Below are positions 31,220-41,326 of a stretch of 64,000 bases of DNA, one piece after another. Within the stretch, counting starts at the first letter, position 1. Every line of letters begins with the position of its first letter. The stretch is taken from positions 15,499-79,498 of the forward strand of contig JANODE010000171.1 of the NCBI GenBank assembly GCA_031412525.1. The letters are read 5' to 3'. The notes beneath the pieces were generated by a model. That model searched no databases. It was given only the letters and a program-made list of their open reading frames with translations, and had not been told where the DNA came from. Source of the stretch: Akkermansiaceae bacterium. GTDB taxonomy: Bacteria > Verrucomicrobiota > Verrucomicrobiia > Verrucomicrobiales > Akkermansiaceae. A program made the translations under genes and the position numbers.

Positions 31220-31296
31220 AGTTGAGAGTCTGGAGTTGAATGTTGAGAGTTGGAAAAGATTTTCTTTCTCTCAACTCTCAACCATCAACTTTCAAC
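31220..31296. repeat. Intergenic inverted array of degenerate heptamers (GTTGAGA / TCTCAAC)
   Basis: Left arm AGTTGAGAGTCTGGAGTTGAATGTTGAGAGTTGG; right arm CTCTCAACTCTCAACCATCAACTTTCAAC. Confidence 0.75.
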
Positions 31297-31299
31297 CTC

Positions 31300-32298
31300 T
31301 TAAAGAATCTCCGCGATTTGCACGGCATTGAGTGCAGCACCTTTCCGGACTTGGTCGCCGACGACCCACAGATCGAGCGCATTGTCGAACACCAGGTTCT
31401 TGCGGATGCGGCCGACGAGGCAGTCGTCTTTTCCCGTTGTATCAAGCGGCACAGGGAACACCTTGTTCGCGATATCGTCCATCAACTGCACACCCGGCTT
31501 GCCCTGATAGGCCGCGCGTGCGGAAGCGACATCCACCGGACGCTCGAACTGCGCGGTGATGGAAACCGAGTGCGACCGATAGACCGGCACGCGCACGCAG
31601 GTGCACGAAACGCGGAGGTCCGGCAGATCCATGATTTTCCGGCCTTCATTGAGCATCTTGAGTTCCTCCTTGGTGTAGCCATTTTCCGTGAACGCATCCA
31701 CCTGCGGGATCACGTTGAACGCGATCTGCCGCGGATAGACTTTGAGCGTCACTGGCTCACCGGCATTGATCGCCTTCATCTGCTCTTCCAGCTCGACGAT
31801 GCCCTGCGCTCCCGATCCGGACACTGCCTGATAGGTCGAAGCAATGATCGAACGCAGCCCGAACGCCTCATGGAGCGGAGCAAGTGCCATCAACGAGATG
31901 ATGGTCGTGCAATTCGGGTTCGCGATGATGTTGCGCGGATGATTCTTCGCGGCTTGTGGGTTGATTTCCGGCACCACGAGCGGCACATCGGCGTCCATGC
32001 GGAAGGCAGACGAATTGTCGATGACGACTGCCCCGGCCTTCGCGGCAGACGGTCCGTATTCGAGAGAAATGCCGCCGCCCGCGCTGAACAAGGCGATGTC
32101 CACGTCCGAAAACGAATCATGAGTGAGCTCCTCGACCGTGATTTCCTCCCCACGAAAGGTCATTTTTTTCCCGGCGGAACGTGCCGAAGCGAGCAGCTTC
32201 AGCTTGCTGAGTGGGAAATTCCGCTGCTCGAGGCAGAGGAGCATTTCGACACCGACGGCACCCGTCGCACCAACGATCGCTACATGGGGATGATTCAT
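31300..32298 (-). CDS. asd: Aspartate-semialdehyde dehydrogenase
   Basis: VAIVGATGAVG, ASARSAG, VIDNSSAFRM, VPLVVPEIN, IANPNCTT, STYQAVSGSG, FNVIP, CVRVPV and VGDQVRKGAALNAVQIAE. Confidence 0.97.
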   Translation of the reverse strand: MNHPHVAIVGATGAVGVEMLLCLEQRNFPLSKLKLLASARSAGKKMTFRGEEITVEELTHDSFSDVDIALFSAGGGISLEYGPSAAKAGAVVIDNSSAFRMDADVPLVVPEINPQAAKNHPRNIIANPNCTTIISLMALAPLHEAFGLRSIIASTYQAVSGSGAQGIVELEEQMKAINAGEPVTLKVYPRQIAFNVIPQVDAFTENGYTKEELKMLNEGRKIMDLPDLRVSCTCVRVPVYRSHSVSITAQFERPVDVASARAAYQGKPGVQLMDDIANKVFPVPLDTTGKDDCLVGRIRKNLVFDNALDLWVVGDQVRKGAALNAVQIAEIL

Positions 32299-32581
32299 TT
32301 TGATAAAACCGGCACCTCCGCCGGGACGCGGAGCATACCGAGATCAGCACCGCTGGCAACCGCTTCGTTTTTCAGATGACGCGCACTTTCAACTTGCTCC
32401 TTTAAAGCCCTGCCCGCCCCAACCCCCCACTAGTTCGATGCCAAAGATTATAATGACGAACTAAGACAGAACATCTTGGATATTGGATATTTAACAGGGC
32501 ACAATAAACATGATTCTTTACTCTGCATTTCTAGCGGAATAGAACCCGATTAGATTTCCTGAAGTCCCCCGTCCCTACATC

Positions 32582-33367
32582 ATGACCCTTTTTGATCTTT
32601 TTGAGTTCGTCTTCCGTTTCTCCCTGGGAGCCTCCAGCGCTGCGACATGGATCTGGGTAGTCATCACGTTCATTGTCTTCATCTTCGTGATCGGCTCACT
32701 CTGGGGCAGGGCTTTCAACAAGGACTGGAGCCTCACCCGGCACGGCGGTTTTCTCGGGACTGTGCTCTTCTTCGCCATCCTTTCCGCTTTCGCGGTCTTC
32801 AACCTTCGGACCATCGCCGGGATGGAGGATTGGTTCAAACAGCAGCGTGCCACCCTTCCTCACGCTGTTGCCGACTCAGGCCGGCTCAAACGCTCGGTCA
32901 TCGTTGAAACGTGGAGCCGACTTGAACCCAAGCAAGGCCAGCAAAAGCTGTCTCCCCCTGATCAGTCTGGCGACCAAGTTCGCCTGAATACCCCAGAAGA
33001 CGCGATTGTATTAGCGAGTGTCGCCGCCGAAGAAGCCCGCACCTCACTTCGCGCCAAACCACCATTTGTCTTCGGTGCTCCACTCGACACCAAAAGCCCC
33101 GACGACATCGCATCGGACACCATTGACGCGCTGAAACTCGCCCCCTCTGCATTTCCCAAAACCGTCTCCAGCGAGAACGAGTGGACTGCTACTGCGGCAA
33201 CGCTTCAGGTCAATCACGCCCTCGACACGGCGCAGAACCTGCTGAAACCAAAGCTGGCCGACCTCAAGACTGCCTGCCTTTGGCTACTCGGACTCTCGAT
33301 TGTTATCTCCTTCGCTTTCGGAGCCATCCGTGCCGTCGAGGACATCAAAGTCAACCCCAAGCCCTAA
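32582..33367 (+). CDS. Hypothetical integral membrane protein (first gene of the tubulin/ZorAB-like operon)
   Basis: Two or three N-terminal hydrophobic helices, a ~150-aa soluble loop and one C-terminal helix; 16 nt from the next start. Confidence 0.85.
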   Translation: MTLFDLFEFVFRFSLGASSAATWIWVVITFIVFIFVIGSLWGRAFNKDWSLTRHGGFLGTVLFFAILSAFAVFNLRTIAGMEDWFKQQRATLPHAVADSGRLKRSVIVETWSRLEPKQGQQKLSPPDQSGDQVRLNTPEDAIVLASVAAEEARTSLRAKPPFVFGAPLDTKSPDDIASDTIDALKLAPSAFPKTVSSENEWTATAATLQVNHALDTAQNLLKPKLADLKTACLWLLGLSIVISFAFGAIRAVEDIKVNPKP

Positions 33368-33383: not shown

Positions 33384-36380
33384 ATGAAAAACCATCTCTT
33401 CATCGGCCTCGGAGGACAGGGCGGCAAGACCGTTGCGGAACTCAAGAAAGTCTTTGCGAGCCGCAATCAAGATGCGAACCAGCTCCAAGAACTCGGGCTG
33501 GTCTGTGATTTTCTCTACATTGACTCTAGCCGCGATGTGACCGACGAGCGTCGCAACTGGTTTCACTACGGGAAAGACCTTTCTCTAAAGCCGGATTCCT
33601 TTCTCTACCTTAAAGAAGGAGGAGCATCCATCAATGTCGCGTCGATGGCGGAGAGACCGGACGTCGCTCCTTGGATTGGTGACCAAGACAAGCTTCAGCG
33701 TTTCATCGAAGGGGTTCAGGGAATTCAAGGAGCGAATCAGCGACGGAGACTTGGGCGGCTGCTCTTTGCCCGTAATGCCGAGCGAATCAGAAAGGCGGTC
33801 TGCGAGGAGAAAATCGGACCGATGCGCGCCAACTCAAATCAGTGTGCGGTACATGTATTCGCATCCCTCGCTGGTGGAACCGGAAGTGGATGCTTGGTGG
33901 ATCTTGTCACGCTGATCCGATCGGAGTTCCCAAATGCCGCCGCGACCGACGGATTTCCGATCTTTCTCTATCTTTATGTCACCAACGAGAAATTCCAAGC
34001 GGCACAAGTGGGGTTTTTCCACGAAAACCAAGCGGCAACTCTCCGGGACCTCAATGCGCTGGCATGCGGAAAGTACAAACCGACGCTTTTCGGTACGGCG
34101 CGCGGTGGCAGCGTGTTCAGCGGAGACGAACCCATCGCCCAGATCCTCCTTAGCACTCATCTGAGCAGCAAAAACCAGAAACTGAGCCTTGCCCAGCAAC
34201 ACCAGATCGTCGCGGAAGCGGCGTTCGAGCGGATTTTCAGTTATGCCTCTGGTAACCTAGACACCACATTCCAGAAATCGCTGACCGGGGAGGATTTGAT
34301 GGCCGCGTTCCCTGGAGAGCCGACGGGCAATTTACTGCGTTCGTTTCGGTTTGGAAGCGTGGGCATGCGTCGATGGGAAGTTCCCATCGACGAAATTCGT
34401 GAACTGCTGGCGAAAGACCTTTTTGCGTGTTGCTGCCGCAAGTTACTCTTCCAGAACTGGAGCAATAGCCGGGGGGCGGTAGGTGAAAAAAATCAGAGTA
34501 ACATCCCAGGATTCTCCGAAGCCCTAGGCCAAATCACCGCTCTTGTCGACAACGAGCTTCTTCTAAAGACCCAGACAGGCGAGATAATCAAAAGCTTGGA
34601 AGCGGATTTCAACCGCTTCCATTCAGGGAAGACTAAGGAAGGCTTCAAAGAAACAGATCTCGCCGGGTATGAAGCTGAACTCCAACAGCGCTACGATCAA
34701 GAACTCAATGGCAGAGGCATCGCTGTGATCTTCCGCGATGTGGAAGCGGGTAGATTGCAGAGGATCGAGCGGATCGAGGCTGGGCTTCAGAGTATCATCA
34801 AAACGTCTTGGCAAAACAATGGAGAGCGCCTCGGGCTTGCTTACATGAACGAACTCCTGCTGAAGGCGCAGGAGGAGATACGTAGGCGGACCACCGAGAA
34901 ACCGACCACCACGAATGGGCAGGACTCGGTGCGATTACGAATGGATAAGCGTAAGTTCGAGTGGTCGAAAATAACATTCTTGTCCCGTCCTCTCCGCCAG
35001 ACGAAGCTCGCATTGGCGCACCAGAGCGATCTCGCCAGCCTCTGCCGGGCAGACGTCCGCCGACGCGCCGAGGTTGAAGACCGAAAGCTGCAGGACATCG
35101 TCGGGCAGCGCCTCGGAATGATGGCATCGGAATTCCAACGGGTAGAGGGCAAGGTGACCGAGTGGGAGGAAGCAGCCCGAAAGCGGCGGGATGGCTTGCT
35201 CCAGGATCTCAGAGCACTGAAGGAGAGGAGACCGCGAGACGACCAAGGCGTTGTTGCCAACAAGCCCGAATTCTCGCTCGATGATCTTGAGGCCCATTTG
35301 AAGGATCAGAGCCTAGAGGCGACCCACATCGAGAACACCTGTGACGAGCTGATCCACCGGTCATTCTCGGAGGCTTTGGGAAACGCTCCGCTCACGGATC
35401 TCGGCAGGTTTTCCGAAGAACAGGAAACGCTGTTCATCGAGAGCTCTGACAGCATCGTCTTCAGAAAGGTCGAAGAGATTCATCATACCATCCGGGAGCG
35501 GACGCACCGCGACTCCGTCCTATCAGGAAATGTGTTGGACGTCCTTAAATTGCGCCACAAAGAAGATCCGGATCGTTTCATCAAGGAGCTTCGCCAATTC
35601 ATCGACAGCGCGACTTGCAACGTGGAGATGGCCAACGGAGAGCTCCAGCCACGCGATTTGAAGGGAGATCCCGGCATGCCATCCATGCCGAGGTCGGGGC
35701 TTCTTATCGGCGTGCCTAATGGCCATCCGTTTGGAACTGAACTCAAGGGCATGATCAAACCACTCCTCGCGGCAGGAAGTTCAGAGAGTCAAGGAATCTA
35801 TTTCCACGACGATCCAACTCAAATCCGCCTTCTGTTCGTTAATTATTGGATGGCGGCCCGCTTTGCAAAGGTTGTTCATCATCTGGAAAGGATGTACCGA
35901 GAGTCGCTGCAACATGACGATGCAGACGATTTCAAGTATTTCACCAACCTCGACCCCAGCGGTGAGAGAGGTGCCCGGCCCCCGTTGCTACGCCCATCGC
36001 CGGATGAATCCCTTAGTAGCATGAGAGCAGCACTTTGGTTGGGTAGCCGGATCTCGGGTCCCGGTGGAGCTGGCACTCTGATTCAAGATACGGAGAACGG
36101 AGCCATACTGATCGAGTGCCAGGAGGATGGTATCGTGCCACGACCGATAGGAGACAGCATTAAGGCGCTGAGTTCCGCCTCAGATGCCGTGACAACGGCC
36201 CGGGTCACCGACTCGGTTGCGAGTCAGATTTCGCTGCTCCTGGACTCGCAAATCGAAGTGCTCAGGTCCACGCTGAGAGAGGATGACAAAGAGAAGCTGA
36301 CGACACTAGGCCCGGGCAACAGTCAGTATGTCGCTTGGACCAAGGACAGGGAGCGAGTCCACGAACTTCTTAAACGATGA
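33384..36380 (+). CDS. Tubulin/FtsZ-like GTPase domain protein (Tubulin_2 family) with long helical C-terminal region
   Basis: NHLFIGLGGQGGK (T1-like loop), GANQRRRLGRLLF, and VHVFASLAGGTGSG (tubulin-signature-like, 33870-33890). 998 aa from the ATG at 33384. Confidence 0.88.
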   Translation: MKNHLFIGLGGQGGKTVAELKKVFASRNQDANQLQELGLVCDFLYIDSSRDVTDERRNWFHYGKDLSLKPDSFLYLKEGGASINVASMAERPDVAPWIGDQDKLQRFIEGVQGIQGANQRRRLGRLLFARNAERIRKAVCEEKIGPMRANSNQCAVHVFASLAGGTGSGCLVDLVTLIRSEFPNAAATDGFPIFLYLYVTNEKFQAAQVGFFHENQAATLRDLNALACGKYKPTLFGTARGGSVFSGDEPIAQILLSTHLSSKNQKLSLAQQHQIVAEAAFERIFSYASGNLDTTFQKSLTGEDLMAAFPGEPTGNLLRSFRFGSVGMRRWEVPIDEIRELLAKDLFACCCRKLLFQNWSNSRGAVGEKNQSNIPGFSEALGQITALVDNELLLKTQTGEIIKSLEADFNRFHSGKTKEGFKETDLAGYEAELQQRYDQELNGRGIAVIFRDVEAGRLQRIERIEAGLQSIIKTSWQNNGERLGLAYMNELLLKAQEEIRRRTTEKPTTTNGQDSVRLRMDKRKFEWSKITFLSRPLRQTKLALAHQSDLASLCRADVRRRAEVEDRKLQDIVGQRLGMMASEFQRVEGKVTEWEEAARKRRDGLLQDLRALKERRPRDDQGVVANKPEFSLDDLEAHLKDQSLEATHIENTCDELIHRSFSEALGNAPLTDLGRFSEEQETLFIESSDSIVFRKVEEIHHTIRERTHRDSVLSGNVLDVLKLRHKEDPDRFIKELRQFIDSATCNVEMANGELQPRDLKGDPGMPSMPRSGLLIGVPNGHPFGTELKGMIKPLLAAGSSESQGIYFHDDPTQIRLLFVNYWMAARFAKVVHHLERMYRESLQHDDADDFKYFTNLDPSGERGARPPLLRPSPDESLSSMRAALWLGSRISGPGGAGTLIQDTENGAILIECQEDGIVPRPIGDSIKALSSASDAVTTARVTDSVASQISLLLDSQIEVLRSTLREDDKEKLTTLGPGNSQYVAWTKDRERVHELLKR

Positions 36381-38371
36381 TCCCCAAGTTTTTCCGATGC
36401 GGTGACCCGAACGGCAAGTGCCCTTGCTTCGTCTCCAAGGATATTCTGCGTGAAGACCCCAGCTTTCAATGCCCGTGTGCCAATGAGACCTGCCAAGCAG
36501 ACCGGAAGGAAGTAGGTCTTCTCGATGGCTTAACCAACGGTCGCTCCAAACTCGTTTACGCCGGAGTTGCGGTGCTCGCGTTCGTGCTGTTCCTCGCCCT
36601 GATTCTTGGTGGTCGAGATCCAGTGGAAAAGGCGCTGGCAGAGCTCAGGACACGCCTTGCCCCATTGGAATCCGAACTCCAACAACTCGAATCCAAGAGC
36701 AAGGGAACCGGTTCGTCGGAGTCACTCGCGACTGATCCCAAACCTCTGCGAACCGCCGCTGCCGCGCTTGAGAAGCAGGCTAGTGACGCCATCGGATCGA
36801 AGGACCCGATGGAGGTGGCCGGCGTCCATAAGAGAATCACGACCCAGATGGCCACCGTAAGTAGCGTCCTTGAGTCGCTGGACCGCCCAAAGGGGGGCTC
36901 CGGGGTAATCGCGGCTGACGCGAAAAGCCTAGTGACGAAACTCGTTCAATTGGAGGATGACGCCGAGCTTCAGCTCGAACCGGTCACCACTAGCTCCCCC
37001 CAGTTGGCCGAAGTATGCGAAGATTTTCTCACCGAGGTGAGCGATTGTCAGGCACGTGCTCGCCGCCTCGCATCCCCCGCAGCACCGGTTGAACCAAGCC
37101 CTGAGAGCAAGGCGATCCGACAAAACCTCAGCCAGATTCTAACTTGGCTGGGAGCCACTCGCGAGAAACTCGACAAATTCGCACCCCCGCCACCCCTCCC
37201 TTTCCAGCCTGACGATGCTGATCTGGTGATCGCTGCATCCAGCAACCTTGCGGGTGATCTGGCAGCCCCGCTTGCTGCCGCCTGGTCGGCCAGCGAAGTC
37301 ATCCCCGCGGAGGACGGGAACTTCTACGTCACCAGCAACAAGGGCAAAAGAATCCTCGTGAAGCCAGTGACGGGGAGCACAGGATACAAGATGCTCGCTG
37401 AAGGCCAATGTTCGGTCTTCTTCGCCGACCGTTCCCCTTCAGCCACCGAACTCGCCAGCTTTAGCAGCGACTTCCGTGAAAGTCGCTCGGTCGCGGAGGT
37501 AGTGGCCTTGGATGCCCTGACGCTTTTAGTCCACCCAGACAACCCCGCCTCTACTGTCACAGTCGGTTCTGACATTCCTTTCCGTATCGCGGCGGGCCCC
37601 GAAAATTCGGCGATCCGGGAAAAGGCGATCCAGTTCGGCTTCCCCGTCACGGGTGCCGGCGAGGCTTCGGGTGAGGACGCAGCCCTCGCCGACCGCAATC
37701 TCCTGAGCCTCGGCCTCTACCACGAAGAGGGAGCTAACCTTCGTGCGAAACGTCTCGCCGTCCAGGCTACCGATGAAACCCTCGCACTCAAGCCAAGTCA
37801 CTTCACTATCGCAACCGAAGACTACCTTTATAGCTTCCGGATTGTCGCATGGACCGCCCCCAAGGCCGTCGACGAAGCTCTCCAGCTCGTGAAGTTCACG
37901 ACATCCACCGAAGGACAGGAGATAGTCGCCAAACAAGGCTTTGTCGATCTTCGACTGACCGGGAGCCAAGGGAATGTGCCTCCGGAAATTCTCGCCGCAT
38001 TGGGAGCCGCGATTGGCTCGGATACGATCAGCTCGGCCATCCGTTTCTCCACCAACTTCCGGTTCGAGGTCGGTAAGTCCCTCCTCGACCTGAAGGCGCA
38101 GGCAGACCTTGAGCGCTTGCCGCGGTTCGTCTTCGAGAAATACCCCACCCACAAGGTGGTGATTCTCGGCTTCACCGACAGCGATGGTGGGCCAGAAATC
38201 AATGTGCCGCTCTCCAAAGACCGGGCGGAGGCGGTCTCTACCGAACTCCGGCGCTCGAAGGTGGACGCACGCTCCGCAGGCCTCGGACCTATTTTCCCAG
38301 TCGACACCAACGCAACAGAAACGGGTAAGGCCAAAAACCGCCGGGCCGAAATATGGGCCGTCCGTCCATAA
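36377..38371 (+). CDS. Cys-rich N-terminus / TM / helical linker / PstS-like (PBP) domain / OmpA-like domain protein
   Basis: Six Cys in the first 39 aa; TM LVYAGVAVLAFVLFLALILGG; PBP-like VVALDALTLLVHPDNP and YLYSFRIVAW; OmpA-like FEVGKS..ILGFTDSDG....N..LS..RAEAV...NRRAEI. ATGA overlap with the tubulin gene. Confidence 0.85.
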   Translation: MIPKFFRCGDPNGKCPCFVSKDILREDPSFQCPCANETCQADRKEVGLLDGLTNGRSKLVYAGVAVLAFVLFLALILGGRDPVEKALAELRTRLAPLESELQQLESKSKGTGSSESLATDPKPLRTAAAALEKQASDAIGSKDPMEVAGVHKRITTQMATVSSVLESLDRPKGGSGVIAADAKSLVTKLVQLEDDAELQLEPVTTSSPQLAEVCEDFLTEVSDCQARARRLASPAAPVEPSPESKAIRQNLSQILTWLGATREKLDKFAPPPPLPFQPDDADLVIAASSNLAGDLAAPLAAAWSASEVIPAEDGNFYVTSNKGKRILVKPVTGSTGYKMLAEGQCSVFFADRSPSATELASFSSDFRESRSVAEVVALDALTLLVHPDNPASTVTVGSDIPFRIAAGPENSAIREKAIQFGFPVTGAGEASGEDAALADRNLLSLGLYHEEGANLRAKRLAVQATDETLALKPSHFTIATEDYLYSFRIVAWTAPKAVDEALQLVKFTTSTEGQEIVAKQGFVDLRLTGSQGNVPPEILAALGAAIGSDTISSAIRFSTNFRFEVGKSLLDLKAQADLERLPRFVFEKYPTHKVVILGFTDSDGGPEINVPLSKDRAEAVSTELRRSKVDARSAGLGPIFPVDTNATETGKAKNRRAEIWAVRP

Positions 38372-38386: not shown

Positions 38387-40252
38387 ATGAACCCCATACT
38401 CGCCCAGATTGCAACGTCCGAATGGCCGGTTTTTTTTGCCGCATTCGCCGGCGCTGTTGGCTTATTAGGCTGCATTGCCGCTTTTGTCGCGCACGCTTCG
38501 ACATCCCGTGACCGCACCGCAATCAAGAAGGCGGAGACGATGCTGGCTTCCTCGGAGTCCTGGGAAGGGGCTCACACATACTCCGCACACGAGCTTTCGG
38601 AGTGGCTTAGAAAACGGACGATTGACCCAGAATCGGGTGTGGCAGATGTGATCCGTGTATGCTGGTCGGCTTGGTTAGGATCCCGTTCAACTTCACTTAC
38701 GGAGCTTCACGTGATTGTAGCTCGAAGGGAGCGTTCAAAGGCTCCCGCGCGGCTCAGTGCTGGTATCGCAGCTCTACTCTTAGTGATCGGGATTGTTGGG
38801 ACTCTTTTCTCCGTCAAACCCATCCTTAAAGACTTCCAGTTCCGAGCCAGTACTCCGCAAGGTGTAATGCCCGCCGCGGACGCCCCTTCATTGGTGAACG
38901 TTGAGGACAGCACTGCACTTGTGAACACGCTAATGCACAGTCTGGGCGACGCGTTCCTGCCAAGTCTCGTCGCCTTGGGTTTTACGATTCTTGTCGTTGC
39001 GCTTCGAGGAGTCTACTCTTTGGGTTTGCAGCGTTACACTCTCGAACTCGACCGCTTCGCCATGGGTACTGTAATGCCGCATTATCGGCCGCGCTCCATC
39101 TCTGATGAATACGAAGAGGTTCGCACCACCTTTGGATCTCTGGCGAAGACCATGGGAGATCGGGAGGATAAGTTCGATAAGGTCATCACTCAGCTCACCA
39201 AGTTCGTCGATAGCGTAGGACCCACTTTGGCAGGCTTGGACACCGGCATAGGCAAGATGACCACAGCTGCGGATGCGTTGGCGGCGAAATCCAACTCGAT
39301 TGCAGACACACTCTCCCGGACGCTCGGCAAAAAATCACCGCTCTACGCAGCGGTGAATGGTTTTGAAGGCATTTTCGCCACGACCAATGAACGGCTAGAT
39401 CAGCTCACTCAACACATAGGCGGGATCCGATCGGAGCAACAGGAGGACCGAAAGGCCATGCTTGAGACATTGGACGAGATCTCCGGTGTCATCAAACGGG
39501 TCTCGGGCGACCACCAACGTGATCGAGAAAATGTCTCAAAGAACATAGCCGACCTCAAAGCGGTTGTTGAGAAGGTCCCTGCCGACCTGATCGAATCCGC
39601 CCGGAAGACTTTCGACGACGGAATTGCCGCGATGCGAACGACGCTCAAAGAGTCCTTGGATAAGCAGACCAAGGAAGCCGAGTCAGTCCATCAGCATACC
39701 CGTTCAAAGACCCAAGAGACCTTGGACCTGATCTCGCAATCTCTCACCACGACTATCACCCTTATCAACGATTCGGTGAAGACGATTCCGGAGGCTGCTG
39801 ATCGGCTGCACGAATCGTTGAATCGCAAGTCTGAAACCGAAAAGGCCGCTGCTGACGCAATCGCTTCACTGGCACAAGAAGCCAAAGCTGGCATTCACGA
39901 TTCGATTAAAACGATTCCGGCGGCAGTTGATAGGTTGAACGAATCTCTGAATCGCAAGTCTGAGACCGAAAAAGCCGCTGCGGTAGCCATCGCTTCACTG
40001 GCCCAGGAAGCCAAAACCGGCATTCGCAGCTCTTATGAGGATGCAGACCGAAAGCAGACGGCACCATCAATTCCTGTTCCCACGATTATCCTTAACCGTA
40101 AGCCGGAACCACTCCATACAACCGTTGTCGATTCAATTCCAGATCGGGATGGAGAACCACCAAAGCCATCCACTCCACTGCCATCCGAACTGGACCACAA
40201 CGACCGAGGACGCGGATTCTTCGGCGGATTATTTGGAGGACGGAAATCCTGA
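38387..40252 (+). CDS. MotA/TolQ/ExbB-like (ZorA-like) membrane protein with long cytoplasmic helical tail
   Basis: Three TM helices; TM2 LLVIGIVGTLFSV and TM3 LGDAFLPSLVALGF match the MotA-family GxxGT and AFxxS patterns. A ~400-aa amphipathic helical tail follows. Confidence 0.8.
   Translation: MNPILAQIATSEWPVFFAAFAGAVGLLGCIAAFVAHASTSRDRTAIKKAETMLASSESWEGAHTYSAHELSEWLRKRTIDPESGVADVIRVCWSAWLGSRSTSLTELHVIVARRERSKAPARLSAGIAALLLVIGIVGTLFSVKPILKDFQFRASTPQGVMPAADAPSLVNVEDSTALVNTLMHSLGDAFLPSLVALGFTILVVALRGVYSLGLQRYTLELDRFAMGTVMPHYRPRSISDEYEEVRTTFGSLAKTMGDREDKFDKVITQLTKFVDSVGPTLAGLDTGIGKMTTAADALAAKSNSIADTLSRTLGKKSPLYAAVNGFEGIFATTNERLDQLTQHIGGIRSEQQEDRKAMLETLDEISGVIKRVSGDHQRDRENVSKNIADLKAVVEKVPADLIESARKTFDDGIAAMRTTLKESLDKQTKEAESVHQHTRSKTQETLDLISQSLTTTITLINDSVKTIPEAADRLHESLNRKSETEKAAADAIASLAQEAKAGIHDSIKTIPAAVDRLNESLNRKSETEKAAAVAIASLAQEAKTGIRSSYEDADRKQTAPSIPVPTIILNRKPEPLHTTVVDSIPDRDGEPPKPSTPLPSELDHNDRGRGFFGGLFGGRKS
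39771..40028 (+). repeat. Tandem 129-bp (43-aa) duplication inside the ZorA-like tail
   Basis: SVKTIPEAADRLHESLNRKSETEKAAADAIASLAQEAKAGIHD followed by SIKTIPAAVDRLNESLNRKSETEKAAAVAIASLAQEAKTGIRS; copies start at 39771 and 39900. Confidence 0.95.
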
Positions 40253-40258
40253 CGGGCT

Positions 40259-41326
40259 ATGTCTGATTCTGACGACGAAATCCCAACCCAGGGCTATTGG
40301 CCGAGCGTCACTGACCTCTTCCTCACTCTATTCATCATTGCAATCGCGATCGTCGCGGTGGTGTTCTGCGCCCTTCTCCCGACAAACAATGTAGGAAAAG
40401 ATCGTGCCTTGATCCACGCGGTGGGCAATGACCTCCGCCACGTCCGAGAACCGATGAACCGGCTCCGTGAGACTTTGGGGCTCACGCAAGTCGACGCGGC
40501 AGTCCAACCATCCGAGGTGATTACCGCGTTATCAGAGACGTGCGACACGGCTGTGAAGCAGATCGACGATCTACGCTCCCAGATCAAGGAACTTCAGAAT
40601 CGGCTGTCCCGACTAATGGGTTCCAAGGACATGCAGGCGGAAATGGAGCGCTTACTAAAAGAGAACGAGGAACTCAAGCGCCAGCTACAGGAACTCCAAC
40701 AGCAACTAACTAAATTGGTTACAACCTTGGGAGCCGATCCTGAGGCGATTAAGAAAATCATGCGCGAAAATGAGGATCTTCGCCGGCAGTTACACGACAA
40801 GCCTCCAAACATTCAAATCGTCGATAAGGAAGGGTATCGCTTCGAATCTGGCAGCAGCGCAATGGGTTCAGACTTCATTTCGGCCCTGCGGAGGAATGAG
40901 TTCCCCCTCCTCGCCAGCGAGATCGTCGACCGAGAAGCGGAAGGCAGGGTAAAAGTGGATACCCTAGAAATAATTGGCCATACCGATGGCGCACCGCTCT
41001 CTAGCGTCGGCAATCTCGACAAGAGATTACCGGATGTTCTCGCCGGCAGATCCAAGATTTCGACCCTGACCCCAGGTTCAAACAATGACCTTGGCCTCCT
41101 CCGGGCACTGGCCGTTCGCGAGCAATGGGAGGGCTTCATCACTGACCACGAGCAACGCGACATCCTCCGCAAGATTCACCTCCGTTGCTACTCTGCAGGA
41201 CAGACGATCCTACCCTTCACGAAGGACGATGCGGTAGCAGATGACTTCCGACAGCCCGACCCTCGCGCACGGCGGATCGAGATGCGACTCACCCGCCTTG
41301 TCACACTCACAAACGAAGACGAGTAA
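40259..41326 (+). CDS. MotB/ZorB-like protein: TM with conserved Asp, coiled-coil stalk, OmpA-like domain
   Basis: YWPSVTD19LFLTLFII (MotB/ZorB W..S..D pattern); heptad stalk; EIIGHTDG...LGLLRALAVR...YSAG...ARRIEMRL. Starts 6 nt after the ZorA-like stop. Confidence 0.82.
   Translation: MSDSDDEIPTQGYWPSVTDLFLTLFIIAIAIVAVVFCALLPTNNVGKDRALIHAVGNDLRHVREPMNRLRETLGLTQVDAAVQPSEVITALSETCDTAVKQIDDLRSQIKELQNRLSRLMGSKDMQAEMERLLKENEELKRQLQELQQQLTKLVTTLGADPEAIKKIMRENEDLRRQLHDKPPNIQIVDKEGYRFESGSSAMGSDFISALRRNEFPLLASEIVDREAEGRVKVDTLEIIGHTDGAPLSSVGNLDKRLPDVLAGRSKISTLTPGSNNDLGLLRALAVREQWEGFITDHEQRDILRKIHLRCYSAGQTILPFTKDDAVADDFRQPDPRARRIEMRLTRLVTLTNEDE

Follow-up and report, generated by a model that had tools for sequence, protein, structure and literature searches.

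The question raised by this locus is what a tubulin-like GTPase of nearly 1000 residues does in an operon whose other products all appear to be membrane proteins. The gene, g2, lies in a 64,000-nt stretch of contig JANODE010000171.1 from an Akkermansiaceae bacterium (the window). It is the second of five genes, g1–g5, that run head to tail with gaps of 6–16 nt and one ATGA overlap. Hydropathy predicted 3, 0, 1, 3, and 1 transmembrane (TM) segments for the five products; g2 alone lacks one, as a preliminary description of this DNA had implied in calling g2 the only soluble component of the operon. Our tentative answer, which we rate somewhat short of an even chance, is that the cassette would be a mobile module, akin to Zorya, for envelope surveillance or defence, in which the g2 GTPase would be the cytoplasmic partner.

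The g2 protein and its family

By its sequence, g2 belongs to the FtsZl1 family (Pfam Tubulin_2). The Tubulin_2 profile (PF13809) matched it with E = 1.7e-32 and 113.5 bits against a cut-off of 27, covering residues 5–348 of the protein and positions 1–352 of the 356 in the profile. The match to PF00091 stayed sub-threshold (21.1 bits, cut-off 33), and neither NCBIfam nor PADLOC gave a match to g2. The search for homologues with g2 (n = 199) returned proteins that carry precomputed PF13809 annotation. The N-terminus MKNHLFIGLGG was found in 113 of the 115 orthologues that we aligned, and because the orthologues start in this way, we take the ATG at 33384 as the real start of g2. A longer open reading frame from a TTG at 33300 was rejected, as it overlaps g1 and is unsupported by orthologue N-termini.

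The T1–T4 elements GLGGQGG, IDSS, GANQRRRxGR, and AGGTGSG were invariant or nearly so across the 115 orthologues. The preliminary description had singled out three of these motifs and assigned g2 to the tubulin/FtsZ superfamily as a Tubulin_2-type protein. All three lie where it placed them (Table 1), and both the Pfam match and Foldseek (probability 1.0) agree with the assignment. The T1–T4 GTP-binding loops of g2 are intact, and the protein is a predicted GTPase.

The AlphaFold2 (AF2) model of g2, built on the 115-sequence alignment, had a predicted local distance difference test score (pLDDT) of 90.1 and a predicted TM-score (pTM) of 0.81. Its Foldseek comparison with the PDB gave 306 matches at E ≤ 1e-3. 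The top 50 were all tubulins or CetZ, with ≈ 350–370 aligned columns and probability 1.0; β-tubulin, γ-tubulin, and CetZ1/2 matched at E of about 1e-5. Identity to the tubulins in the structural alignments was 11–14%. In a viral structure library, phage FtsZ, tubulin, and PhuZ ranked on top and were the sole credible matches. In the model, residues 1 to ~ 370 are thus the alternating β/α tubulin/FtsZ core fold, and the Foldseek check that the preliminary description had proposed for the N-terminal part did find the tubulin fold, over ~ 360 columns. By sequence search, no solved structure of a close g2 relative was found in the PDB; the g2 profile gave just weak matches at the GGTGSG motif, to β-tubulin/TubZ (E 0.016–0.05).

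Beyond the core, the model is helical at residues 377–765, including one 80-residue helix at 535–614. R523, W527, and K529 are invariant and make up a short conserved motif of this region. An α/β domain and terminal helices complete the chain (Table 1), and the invariant polar residues of the C-terminal domain are H808, D810, R815, Y852, and N855. The earlier account of ~ 700 mostly helical residues was roughly right and overlooked the α/β domain. It had also seen no nuclease motif there, which is in line with our searches: the last ~ 630 residues matched no family or solved structure in Pfam, NCBIfam, PADLOC, the PDB sequences, or the viral structure library, and structurally they were assessed only within the full-length model, whose PDB list was filled by tubulins.

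FtsZl1 was defined in 2010 by Makarova & Koonin, who reported it from many bacterial phyla and some archaea (PMC2875224). In the analysis of Santana-Molina et al. 2023, Tubulin_2 proteins form a divergent outgroup of the FtsZ/tubulin family (PMC9871819). Since FtsZl1 members are ~ 1000 aa long with a helical C-terminal part, the size that earned g2 the label "giant" is the family norm and no oddity (PMC2875224). A profile of the g2 subfamily retrieved 1249 clusters (50% identity) at E ≤ 1e-3 and 385 at E ≤ 1e-30, and among the 150 best clusters listed, most measured ~ 1000 aa and aligned with the profile end to end. We rejected g2 as a canonical FtsZ or division paralogue, given the PF00091 score, the lack of FtsZ_C, and the lack of a dcw context. 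A relationship to BtubA/B was rejected as well: PF00091 is sub-threshold, Tubulin_C is absent, and g2 is an unpaired gene in an operon of another kind. The preliminary description's link to Prosthecobacter BtubAB is irrelevant here, the more so because the cassette is also found in gammaproteobacterial Chromatiaceae.

The motor pair and the other membrane proteins

The motor pair of the cassette is g4 (A subunit, by its modelled fold) and g5 (B subunit). The g4 protein has three TM helices (residues 15–33, 125–143, and 188–206), followed by a ≈ 400-residue helical cytoplasmic tail. Its AF2 model covers residues 1–260 (pLDDT 80). In the PDB comparison by Foldseek, most of the top 50 matches, and every match with probability ≥ 0.9, were ExbB, ZorA, or TolQ chains. 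ZorA gave the longest structural alignments (278 columns, TM-score 0.54), while MotA/PomA chains ranked lower and had low probability. Pfam MotA_ExbB matched 3 of 16 g4 orthologues (best E 0.057); because this profile barely matches, the motor identity of g4 rests on the fold search. The residues G135, T139, P192, S193, and T200 of TM2 and TM3 are invariant. A query with g4 residues 1–250 retrieved two short fragments only, and the homologues came with the full-length query. The g4 profile also matched ZorA 8vvn_C (E 5e-7), in the coiled-coil tail only and among apolipoproteins and chemoreceptors; we did not count it as homology.

The g4 tail ends with a Pro-rich, poorly conserved linker and then a conserved G-F-F-x-x-x-F peptide, which is a plausible docking site. 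Further upstream, the tail contains a tandem duplication of 129 nt (43 aa; 2.0 copies, 83% identical). Orthologues carry one or two copies of this repeat (one, for example, in the 578-aa protein of locus L039), and their total length ranges from 517 to 707 aa, with a very variable tail. As copy number and tail length both vary among orthologues, the tail evolves in length by gain and loss of repeats.

The g5 protein has a single TM segment in which W14, P15, S16, D19, L20, and F21 (WPSxxDLF) are invariant in 19 orthologues. The D19 motif lies at the cytoplasmic end of the TM helix, the position of the proton-carrying Asp in MotB and ZorB. On the periplasmic side come a coiled coil that varies in length and then a peptidoglycan-binding domain, OmpA-like but divergent, with the motifs GHTDG ... 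NNDLGLLRA ... ARRIEMR. Pfam OmpA matched 5 of the 19 orthologues (best E 2e-4). Against PDB sequences, the matches of g5 profiles to MotB, PomB, and ZorB were all non-significant; the best for the C-terminal profile was Shewanella ZorB 8vvn_B (E 0.11). The large OmpA protein g3 was not taken as the B subunit: its TM helix is without an acidic residue, and g5 carries the invariant Asp19. We also rejected a motility stator: the cassette is carried by Thiocapsa and Thiodictyon, which are non-motile genera. With three TM helices and a long tail in the A subunit and peptidoglycan binding in the B subunit, the architecture is that of ZorAB, not of ExbBD, TolQR, or MotAB (PMC11946911). By analogy, the g4/g5 motor may have a 5:2 stoichiometry. 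The tie between g2 and an adjacent membrane motor, suggested in the preliminary description, is upheld by the constant order of the five genes and the ExbB/ZorA/TolQ fold of g4.

The start of g3 overlaps the stop of g2 (ATGA). Its product has a Cys-containing cytoplasmic N-terminus, a TM helix at residues 59–77, a helical periplasmic stretch, a PstS/PBP-like domain at residues ~ 317–530 (PstS/PBP_like_2, strongly conserved motifs), and a C-terminal OmpA peptidoglycan-binding domain at residues 555–660 (Pfam OmpA, 1.1e-9). The OmpA-type and PstS matches in NCBIfam were below their cut-offs. The periplasmic PBP-like domain is probably a sensor. The g1 protein has three predicted TM segments (about residues 20–38, 57–75, and 231–249), with a soluble loop of ~ 150 aa, and gave no match in Pfam, NCBIfam, or PADLOC. 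Its gene is directly upstream of g2 in all loci with a contig reaching that far.

Distribution, mobility and neighbouring genes

Loci were collected by a scan of one genome per species, together with metagenome look-ups. The arrangement g1–g5 recurs in more than 20 of them, and wherever a contig spans the cassette, the genes keep this order and either overlap or lie a short distance apart. The carriers belong to Verrucomicrobiales, Akkermansiaceae, Chthoniobacterales, and Chromatiaceae, and isolates include Rubritalea profundi and Sulfuriroseicoccus oceanibius. The gammaproteobacterial Thiocapsa and Thiodictyon hold a complete cassette (L014, L015, L017, L018, L020, L037) with 33–36% identity to the Verrucomicrobial proteins. 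From these sequences, transfer of the cassette between phyla is clear. In the Chromatiaceae locus L037, it adjoins relaxase, MobC, ArdC, and ParA genes, and its presence in purple sulfur bacteria beside such a set points to a conjugative element as the vehicle.

An Akkermansia variant (L019:9063-19611) has a g2 of 1051 aa with 26% identity, in the order g1-like gene, g2, 802-aa OmpA-type gene, g4-like gene, 506-aa OmpA-type gene, and a second g1-like gene. The shared layout of this distant variant shows that the plan predates the g2 subfamily. More distant relatives of g2 were seen in Bacteroidales/Prevotella (L023-L033), Sandarakinorhabdus (L034), and Luteolibacter (L022); they are ~ 1000-aa Tubulin_2 proteins whose similarity to g2 by tblastn is confined to the N-terminal ~ 380 aa. 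Beside the Tubulin_2 gene of the Bacteroidales loci lie genes for 3-TM and 1-TM membrane proteins of comparable topology, which had no similarity to g4/g5 by hhalign (probability < 1%) and no match in Pfam. We therefore did not extend the motor link to the relatives in these three groups.

The window cassette lies between asd and a polyprenyl synthase gene upstream and acid phosphatase, peptidyl-prolyl isomerase (PPIase), L,D-transpeptidase, and HflX genes downstream, that is, outside a dcw cluster, as had been noted before. Compared with 39 loci by tblastx, the window flanks gave three weak pieces (28–58 bits), all in L017, and no synteny to the flanks of those loci, including L003 and L004, relatives with 88% and 75% identity. 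An open reading frame of 379 aa at 31240-32379 (+) is a shadow of asd (31300-32298, minus strand); it matches no family and probably does not represent a gene. A promoter and terminator scan of the window gave counts not above those of shuffled sequence. Matches in the sequencing-run search were DNA metagenomes only, and the window sequence was present in a freshwater-sediment run.

All ten neighbourhoods annotated with Pfam carry at least one gene of toxin, restriction, helicase-nuclease, or mobile-element type. Among the neighbours in these ten loci were AbiEi/AbiEii, HipA, Zeta toxin, and the pairs DUF433/DUF5615 and UPF0175/DUF3368. Others encode an HNH-ScoMcrA protein and a WYL regulator, a helicase with DUF4011, a STAND-like AAA_16 ATPase of very large size, UvrD-PDDEXK together with a methyltransferase and a TnsA-like protein, an integrase of phage type, and the relaxase/MobC/ArdC/ParA set. 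The integrase lies near the cassette in L042; L043 has SSB and phage-like genes there, and in L039 a ribosomal operon is beside the cassette.

A recurrent neighbour encodes an SNase-like (PF00565) protein of 275–300 aa with a signal peptide and C-terminal HHH DNA-binding repeats (ComEA-like). Seven locus entries have the SNase-HHH gene immediately next to the cassette; two of these (L002 and L011) represent one Rubritalea profundi locus, and another two (L006 and L008) are near-duplicates of each other. Three further loci contain other SNase genes in the vicinity. In about half of the loci, an SNase-type nuclease gene adjoins the cassette. SNase-HHH may be a periplasmic nuclease that serves as an optional sixth component, and in some cases its gene is accompanied by one for a small DUF6804 membrane protein.

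Table 1. Features of the five-gene cassette in the window and of SNase genes at other cassette loci (the latter numbered within the respective locus).
Feature	Coordinates	Strand	Basis or remark
g1, 261-aa membrane protein	32582..33367	+	hydropathy
g2, FtsZl1/Tubulin_2 GTPase (predicted), soluble, 998 aa	33384..36380	+	ATG 33384, TGA 36378-36380
g2 aa 1-370, tubulin/FtsZ-fold core (model)	33384..34493	+	Pfam, AF2, Foldseek, alignment
g2 T1 loop IGLGGQGG, aa 7-14	33402-33425	+	115-orthologue alignment
g2 GANQRRRLGRL, aa 116-126, T3 equivalent	33729-33761	+	115-orthologue alignment
g2 T4 signature AGGTGSG, aa 163-169	33870-33890	+	115-orthologue alignment
g2 aa 371-765, all-helical region	34494..35678	+	AF2 secondary structure, conservation
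g2 aa 766-998, α/β domain (~ aa 770-925), then terminal helices	35679..36380	+	AF2
g3, 664-aa bitopic membrane protein	36377..38371	+	Pfam, NCBIfam, hydropathy
g3 PstS/PBP-like domain	37325-37966		PstS/PBP_like_2
g4, 621-aa ExbB/TolQ/ZorA-fold motor A subunit	38387..40252	+	AF2, Foldseek
g4 tail, tandem duplication	39768..40025	+	TRF
g4 tail tip, aa ~ 555-621 (RGFFGGLFGGR in the window, consensus G-x-F-x-R-x-F)	40050-40249	+	orthologue alignment
g5, 355-aa MotB/ZorB-like B subunit	40259..41326	+	alignment, Pfam
SNase-HHH genes	L002:8352-9179, L003:6260-7084, L036:7689-8573, L038:7769-8680, L006:5510-6337		adjoining cassette
SNase gene	L018:18580-19050		downstream of cassette

Possible functions and comparison with known systems

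The five genes form a self-contained, horizontally mobile module, the core of which would be, by analogy, an ion-driven motor of the 5:2 type. Zorya-like surveillance is the most economical model for an accessory, mobile module that has defence and mobile-element neighbours and a ZorAB-like motor. Its more specific form, a new class of such surveillance in which a 5:2 rotary motor, driven by protons and bearing a long cytoplasmic tail, is coupled to a tubulin-superfamily GTPase in place of a nuclease, is possible but doubtful. In the mechanism that we propose, an envelope disturbance, such as entry of phage or foreign DNA, would engage the g4/g5 motor, with g5 providing the putative proton-carrying TM Asp and a peptidoglycan anchor. 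The g4 tail or its tip peptide, together with the cytoplasmic N-terminus of g3, would relay the signal to g2; since g2 and g3 are translationally coupled, the g3 N-terminus may be a further docking site. The GTPase would then bind GTP, assemble or change conformation at the membrane, and serve as scaffold or effector, while in many genomes the neighbouring secreted SNase-HHH may be the DNA-degrading arm. The g3 protein would add a second anchor with the probable sensor, and g1 a small membrane subunit. Analogy is also the basis on which we propose that g2 touches the g4 tail or g3, that it polymerises, and that the module has this trigger and a function in defence.

Several observations weigh against a surveillance or defence function. 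In the window cassette, we saw no SNase gene, nuclease, or other recognisable toxic effector, and housekeeping genes flank it on both sides. The island-like context was judged qualitatively from ten loci and not by an enrichment statistic, and in curated collections a g2 homologue was present on one megaplasmid (unannotated) and in no phage. The cassette is without ZorC/ZorD, ZorE, and ZorF/ZorG, and PADLOC had no match for g1 or g2. On g4, the NCBIfam models antiphage_ZorA_1 and ZorA_3 scored 25.7 bits against 190 and 20 against 250, respectively, in the tail only; the PADLOC ZorA/ZorB models gave E of 1e-5 or weaker on g4/g3, in coiled-coil/OmpA regions. Foldseek left ZorA unseparated from ExbB/TolQ for g4, and a Tol-Pal-like envelope function therefore fits the motor fold equally. 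The canonical T7 motif NxD (NxDxxD/E) is not conserved in the 115 g2 orthologues, which makes tubulin-style cytomotive behaviour uncertain. In the literature searched, we found no experimental study of any FtsZl1 protein and no paper that links the family to defence.

Makarova & Koonin proposed a membrane-remodelling role for FtsZl1 from its vWA, GTPase, and OmpA gene contexts (PMC2875224). Following them, the cassette could be a membrane-remodelling or envelope-maintenance machine, Tol-Pal-like and coupled to an FtsZ-like element, which we consider somewhat unlikely. The g4/g5 motor, driven by the proton-motive force (PMF), and the g3/g5 anchors would pull the envelope, and g2 would assemble at the membrane and shape it, for instance in vesicle formation, local constriction, or stress repair. 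The fold of g4 fits ExbB/TolQ at least as well as ZorA, and such a machine would make use of the two OmpA-type peptidoglycan anchors, the periplasmic PBP-like domain, and a tubulin fold with intact GTP-binding loops; the L,D-transpeptidase, PPIase, and polyprenyl synthase genes in the window flanks are envelope genes. It is harder to reconcile with the patchy distribution and clear inter-phylum transfer, with flanks that differ even between close relatives, and with the recurrent toxin-antitoxin, restriction, and mobile-element neighbours and nearby nucleases. Moreover, g5 is MotB/ZorB-like (OmpA-type) and not TolR/ExbD-like, and a long A-subunit tail of variable length is a hallmark of Zorya, not of Tol/Exb. 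Remodelling thus explains mobility and neighbours less well than defence does, and fits fold and anchors equally well. We regard as very unlikely an apparatus with which mobile elements handle DNA, be it TubZ-like partition or DNA uptake and processing across the envelope. Here g2 would move DNA, and the motor and SNase-HHH would act on periplasmic DNA. The precedents for tubulin-like DNA segregation are TubZ and PhuZ, the cassette is on or beside conjugative or integrative elements in some loci (L037, L042, L043), and SNase-HHH adjoins it in L002, L003, L006/L008, L036, and L038, with a gene downstream in L018. However, we saw neither a DNA-binding adaptor of the TubR kind nor centromere-like repeats, many copies sit in chromosomes amid housekeeping genes (as in the window and in L039), the curated collections contained one plasmid and no phage with a homologue, and about half of the loci, the window included, lack the nuclease.

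A further alternative concerns the action of g2 itself and is compatible with all three system-level functions. The protein may be a GTP-regulated switch and not a filament former, with the conserved C-terminal α/β domain carrying an enzymatic or membrane-active function; we consider this unlikely. The T7 region of the window protein reads N291-L-D293; at position 293, 35 of the 115 orthologues have D, 26 have N, and 25 have S. As T7 is not conserved, polymerisation-coupled GTP hydrolysis should not be assumed. Makarova & Koonin did not find the T6-H7 elements in FtsZl1 and raised the absence of filaments as a possibility (PMC2875224). A pTM of 0.81 suggests a compact multidomain protein, not an extended stalk, and the five invariant polar residues of the C-terminal domain would also suit a switch. 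On the other side, the ~ 360 columns aligned with tubulin/CetZ exceed a GTPase domain alone, and the C-terminal part has no match to a known enzyme family. Invariant acidic residues also lie just past the H7 equivalent (E303/D304 and E312), of which D304/E312 could stand in for the T7 catalytic residues.

We return to the Zorya-like, tubulin-coupled reading. If true, it would give FtsZl1, which is widespread and among the most divergent tubulin/FtsZ branches, its first function sixteen years after its description, and it would be the first known link of a rotary ion motor to a tubulin-like protein. A defence function would mean a new output class for Zorya-type motors and a tubulin-fold protein among bacterial immune components, and remodelling, if that were true, a Tol-Pal-like machine with its own cytoskeletal element. 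The partners can now be named: the ZorAB-like motor, a pair of peptidoglycan anchors, and the PBP-like domain in the periplasm. Because the function of FtsZl1 thereby becomes directly testable, we consider the cassette of moderate to high interest.

The FtsZl1 family itself was known, and so was one linkage of this kind: the 2010 supplement lists, for Deinococcus, FtsZl1 beside a MotA/TolQ/ExbB gene and an OmpA (COG1360) gene (PMC2875224). The same FtsZl1-motor association thus exists in an independent lineage. The authors described the OmpA partners as β-barrel transport proteins and did not discuss the motor (PMC2875224). The five-gene Verrucomicrobial/Chromatiaceae cassette, with its ZorA-like tail, ZorB-like Asp, and island-like context, appears to be undescribed in the literature searched. 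Like other FtsZl1 proteins, g2 has ~ 1000 aa, a helical middle, and a C-terminal domain, lacks FtsZ_C and Tubulin_C, and shares its operon with OmpA-family and other membrane proteins (g1, g3, g4, g5), here in strict synteny. Its subfamily differs from them in having no vWA, P-loop GTPase, or protein-kinase partners. The motor A subunit is missed by Pfam MotA_ExbB and bears the ~ 400-aa tail, and the cassette adds the PBP-like/OmpA protein g3 and the 3-TM protein g1.

With FtsZ, CetZ, TubZ/PhuZ, and BtubA/B, g2 has in common the tubulin/FtsZ fold and the T1–T4 loops. It differs from them by its high divergence, ~ 630 extra C-terminal residues, and unconserved T7 NxD, and it neither lies beside TubR or tubC nor forms a BtubA/B pair. 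TolQR-Pal and ExbBD-TonB offer the same A-subunit fold as g4, likely use of the PMF, and peptidoglycan-associated OmpA-type proteins. There, however, the B subunit is of the TolR/ExbD type and not MotB-like as in g5, and no TolA or TonB homologue was recognised in the cassette. The long tail and the tubulin-like partner have no counterpart in those systems, and the cassette genes are accessory and horizontally transferred, not core.

For Zorya, we relied on Hu et al. 2024 (PMC11946911) and Mariano et al. 2025 (PMC11890865), who described a ZorA5B2 motor with soluble effectors. The known types I–III were rejected for our cassette, since their type-defining effectors are absent and the ZorA/ZorB hidden Markov models (HMMs) stay far below their thresholds on its proteins. 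Its soluble partner is a tubulin-fold GTPase, predicted as such, and not a nuclease or helicase; the soluble gene is upstream of the motor, and two extra membrane proteins (g1, g3) are present. What the cassette shares with Zorya is an A subunit with three TM helices, an ExbB/ZorA fold, and a long helical cytoplasmic tail of variable length, a B subunit that combines a TM Asp with a peptidoglycan-binding domain of OmpA-like type, an operon that also encodes a soluble protein, and a patchy distribution in an island-like context.

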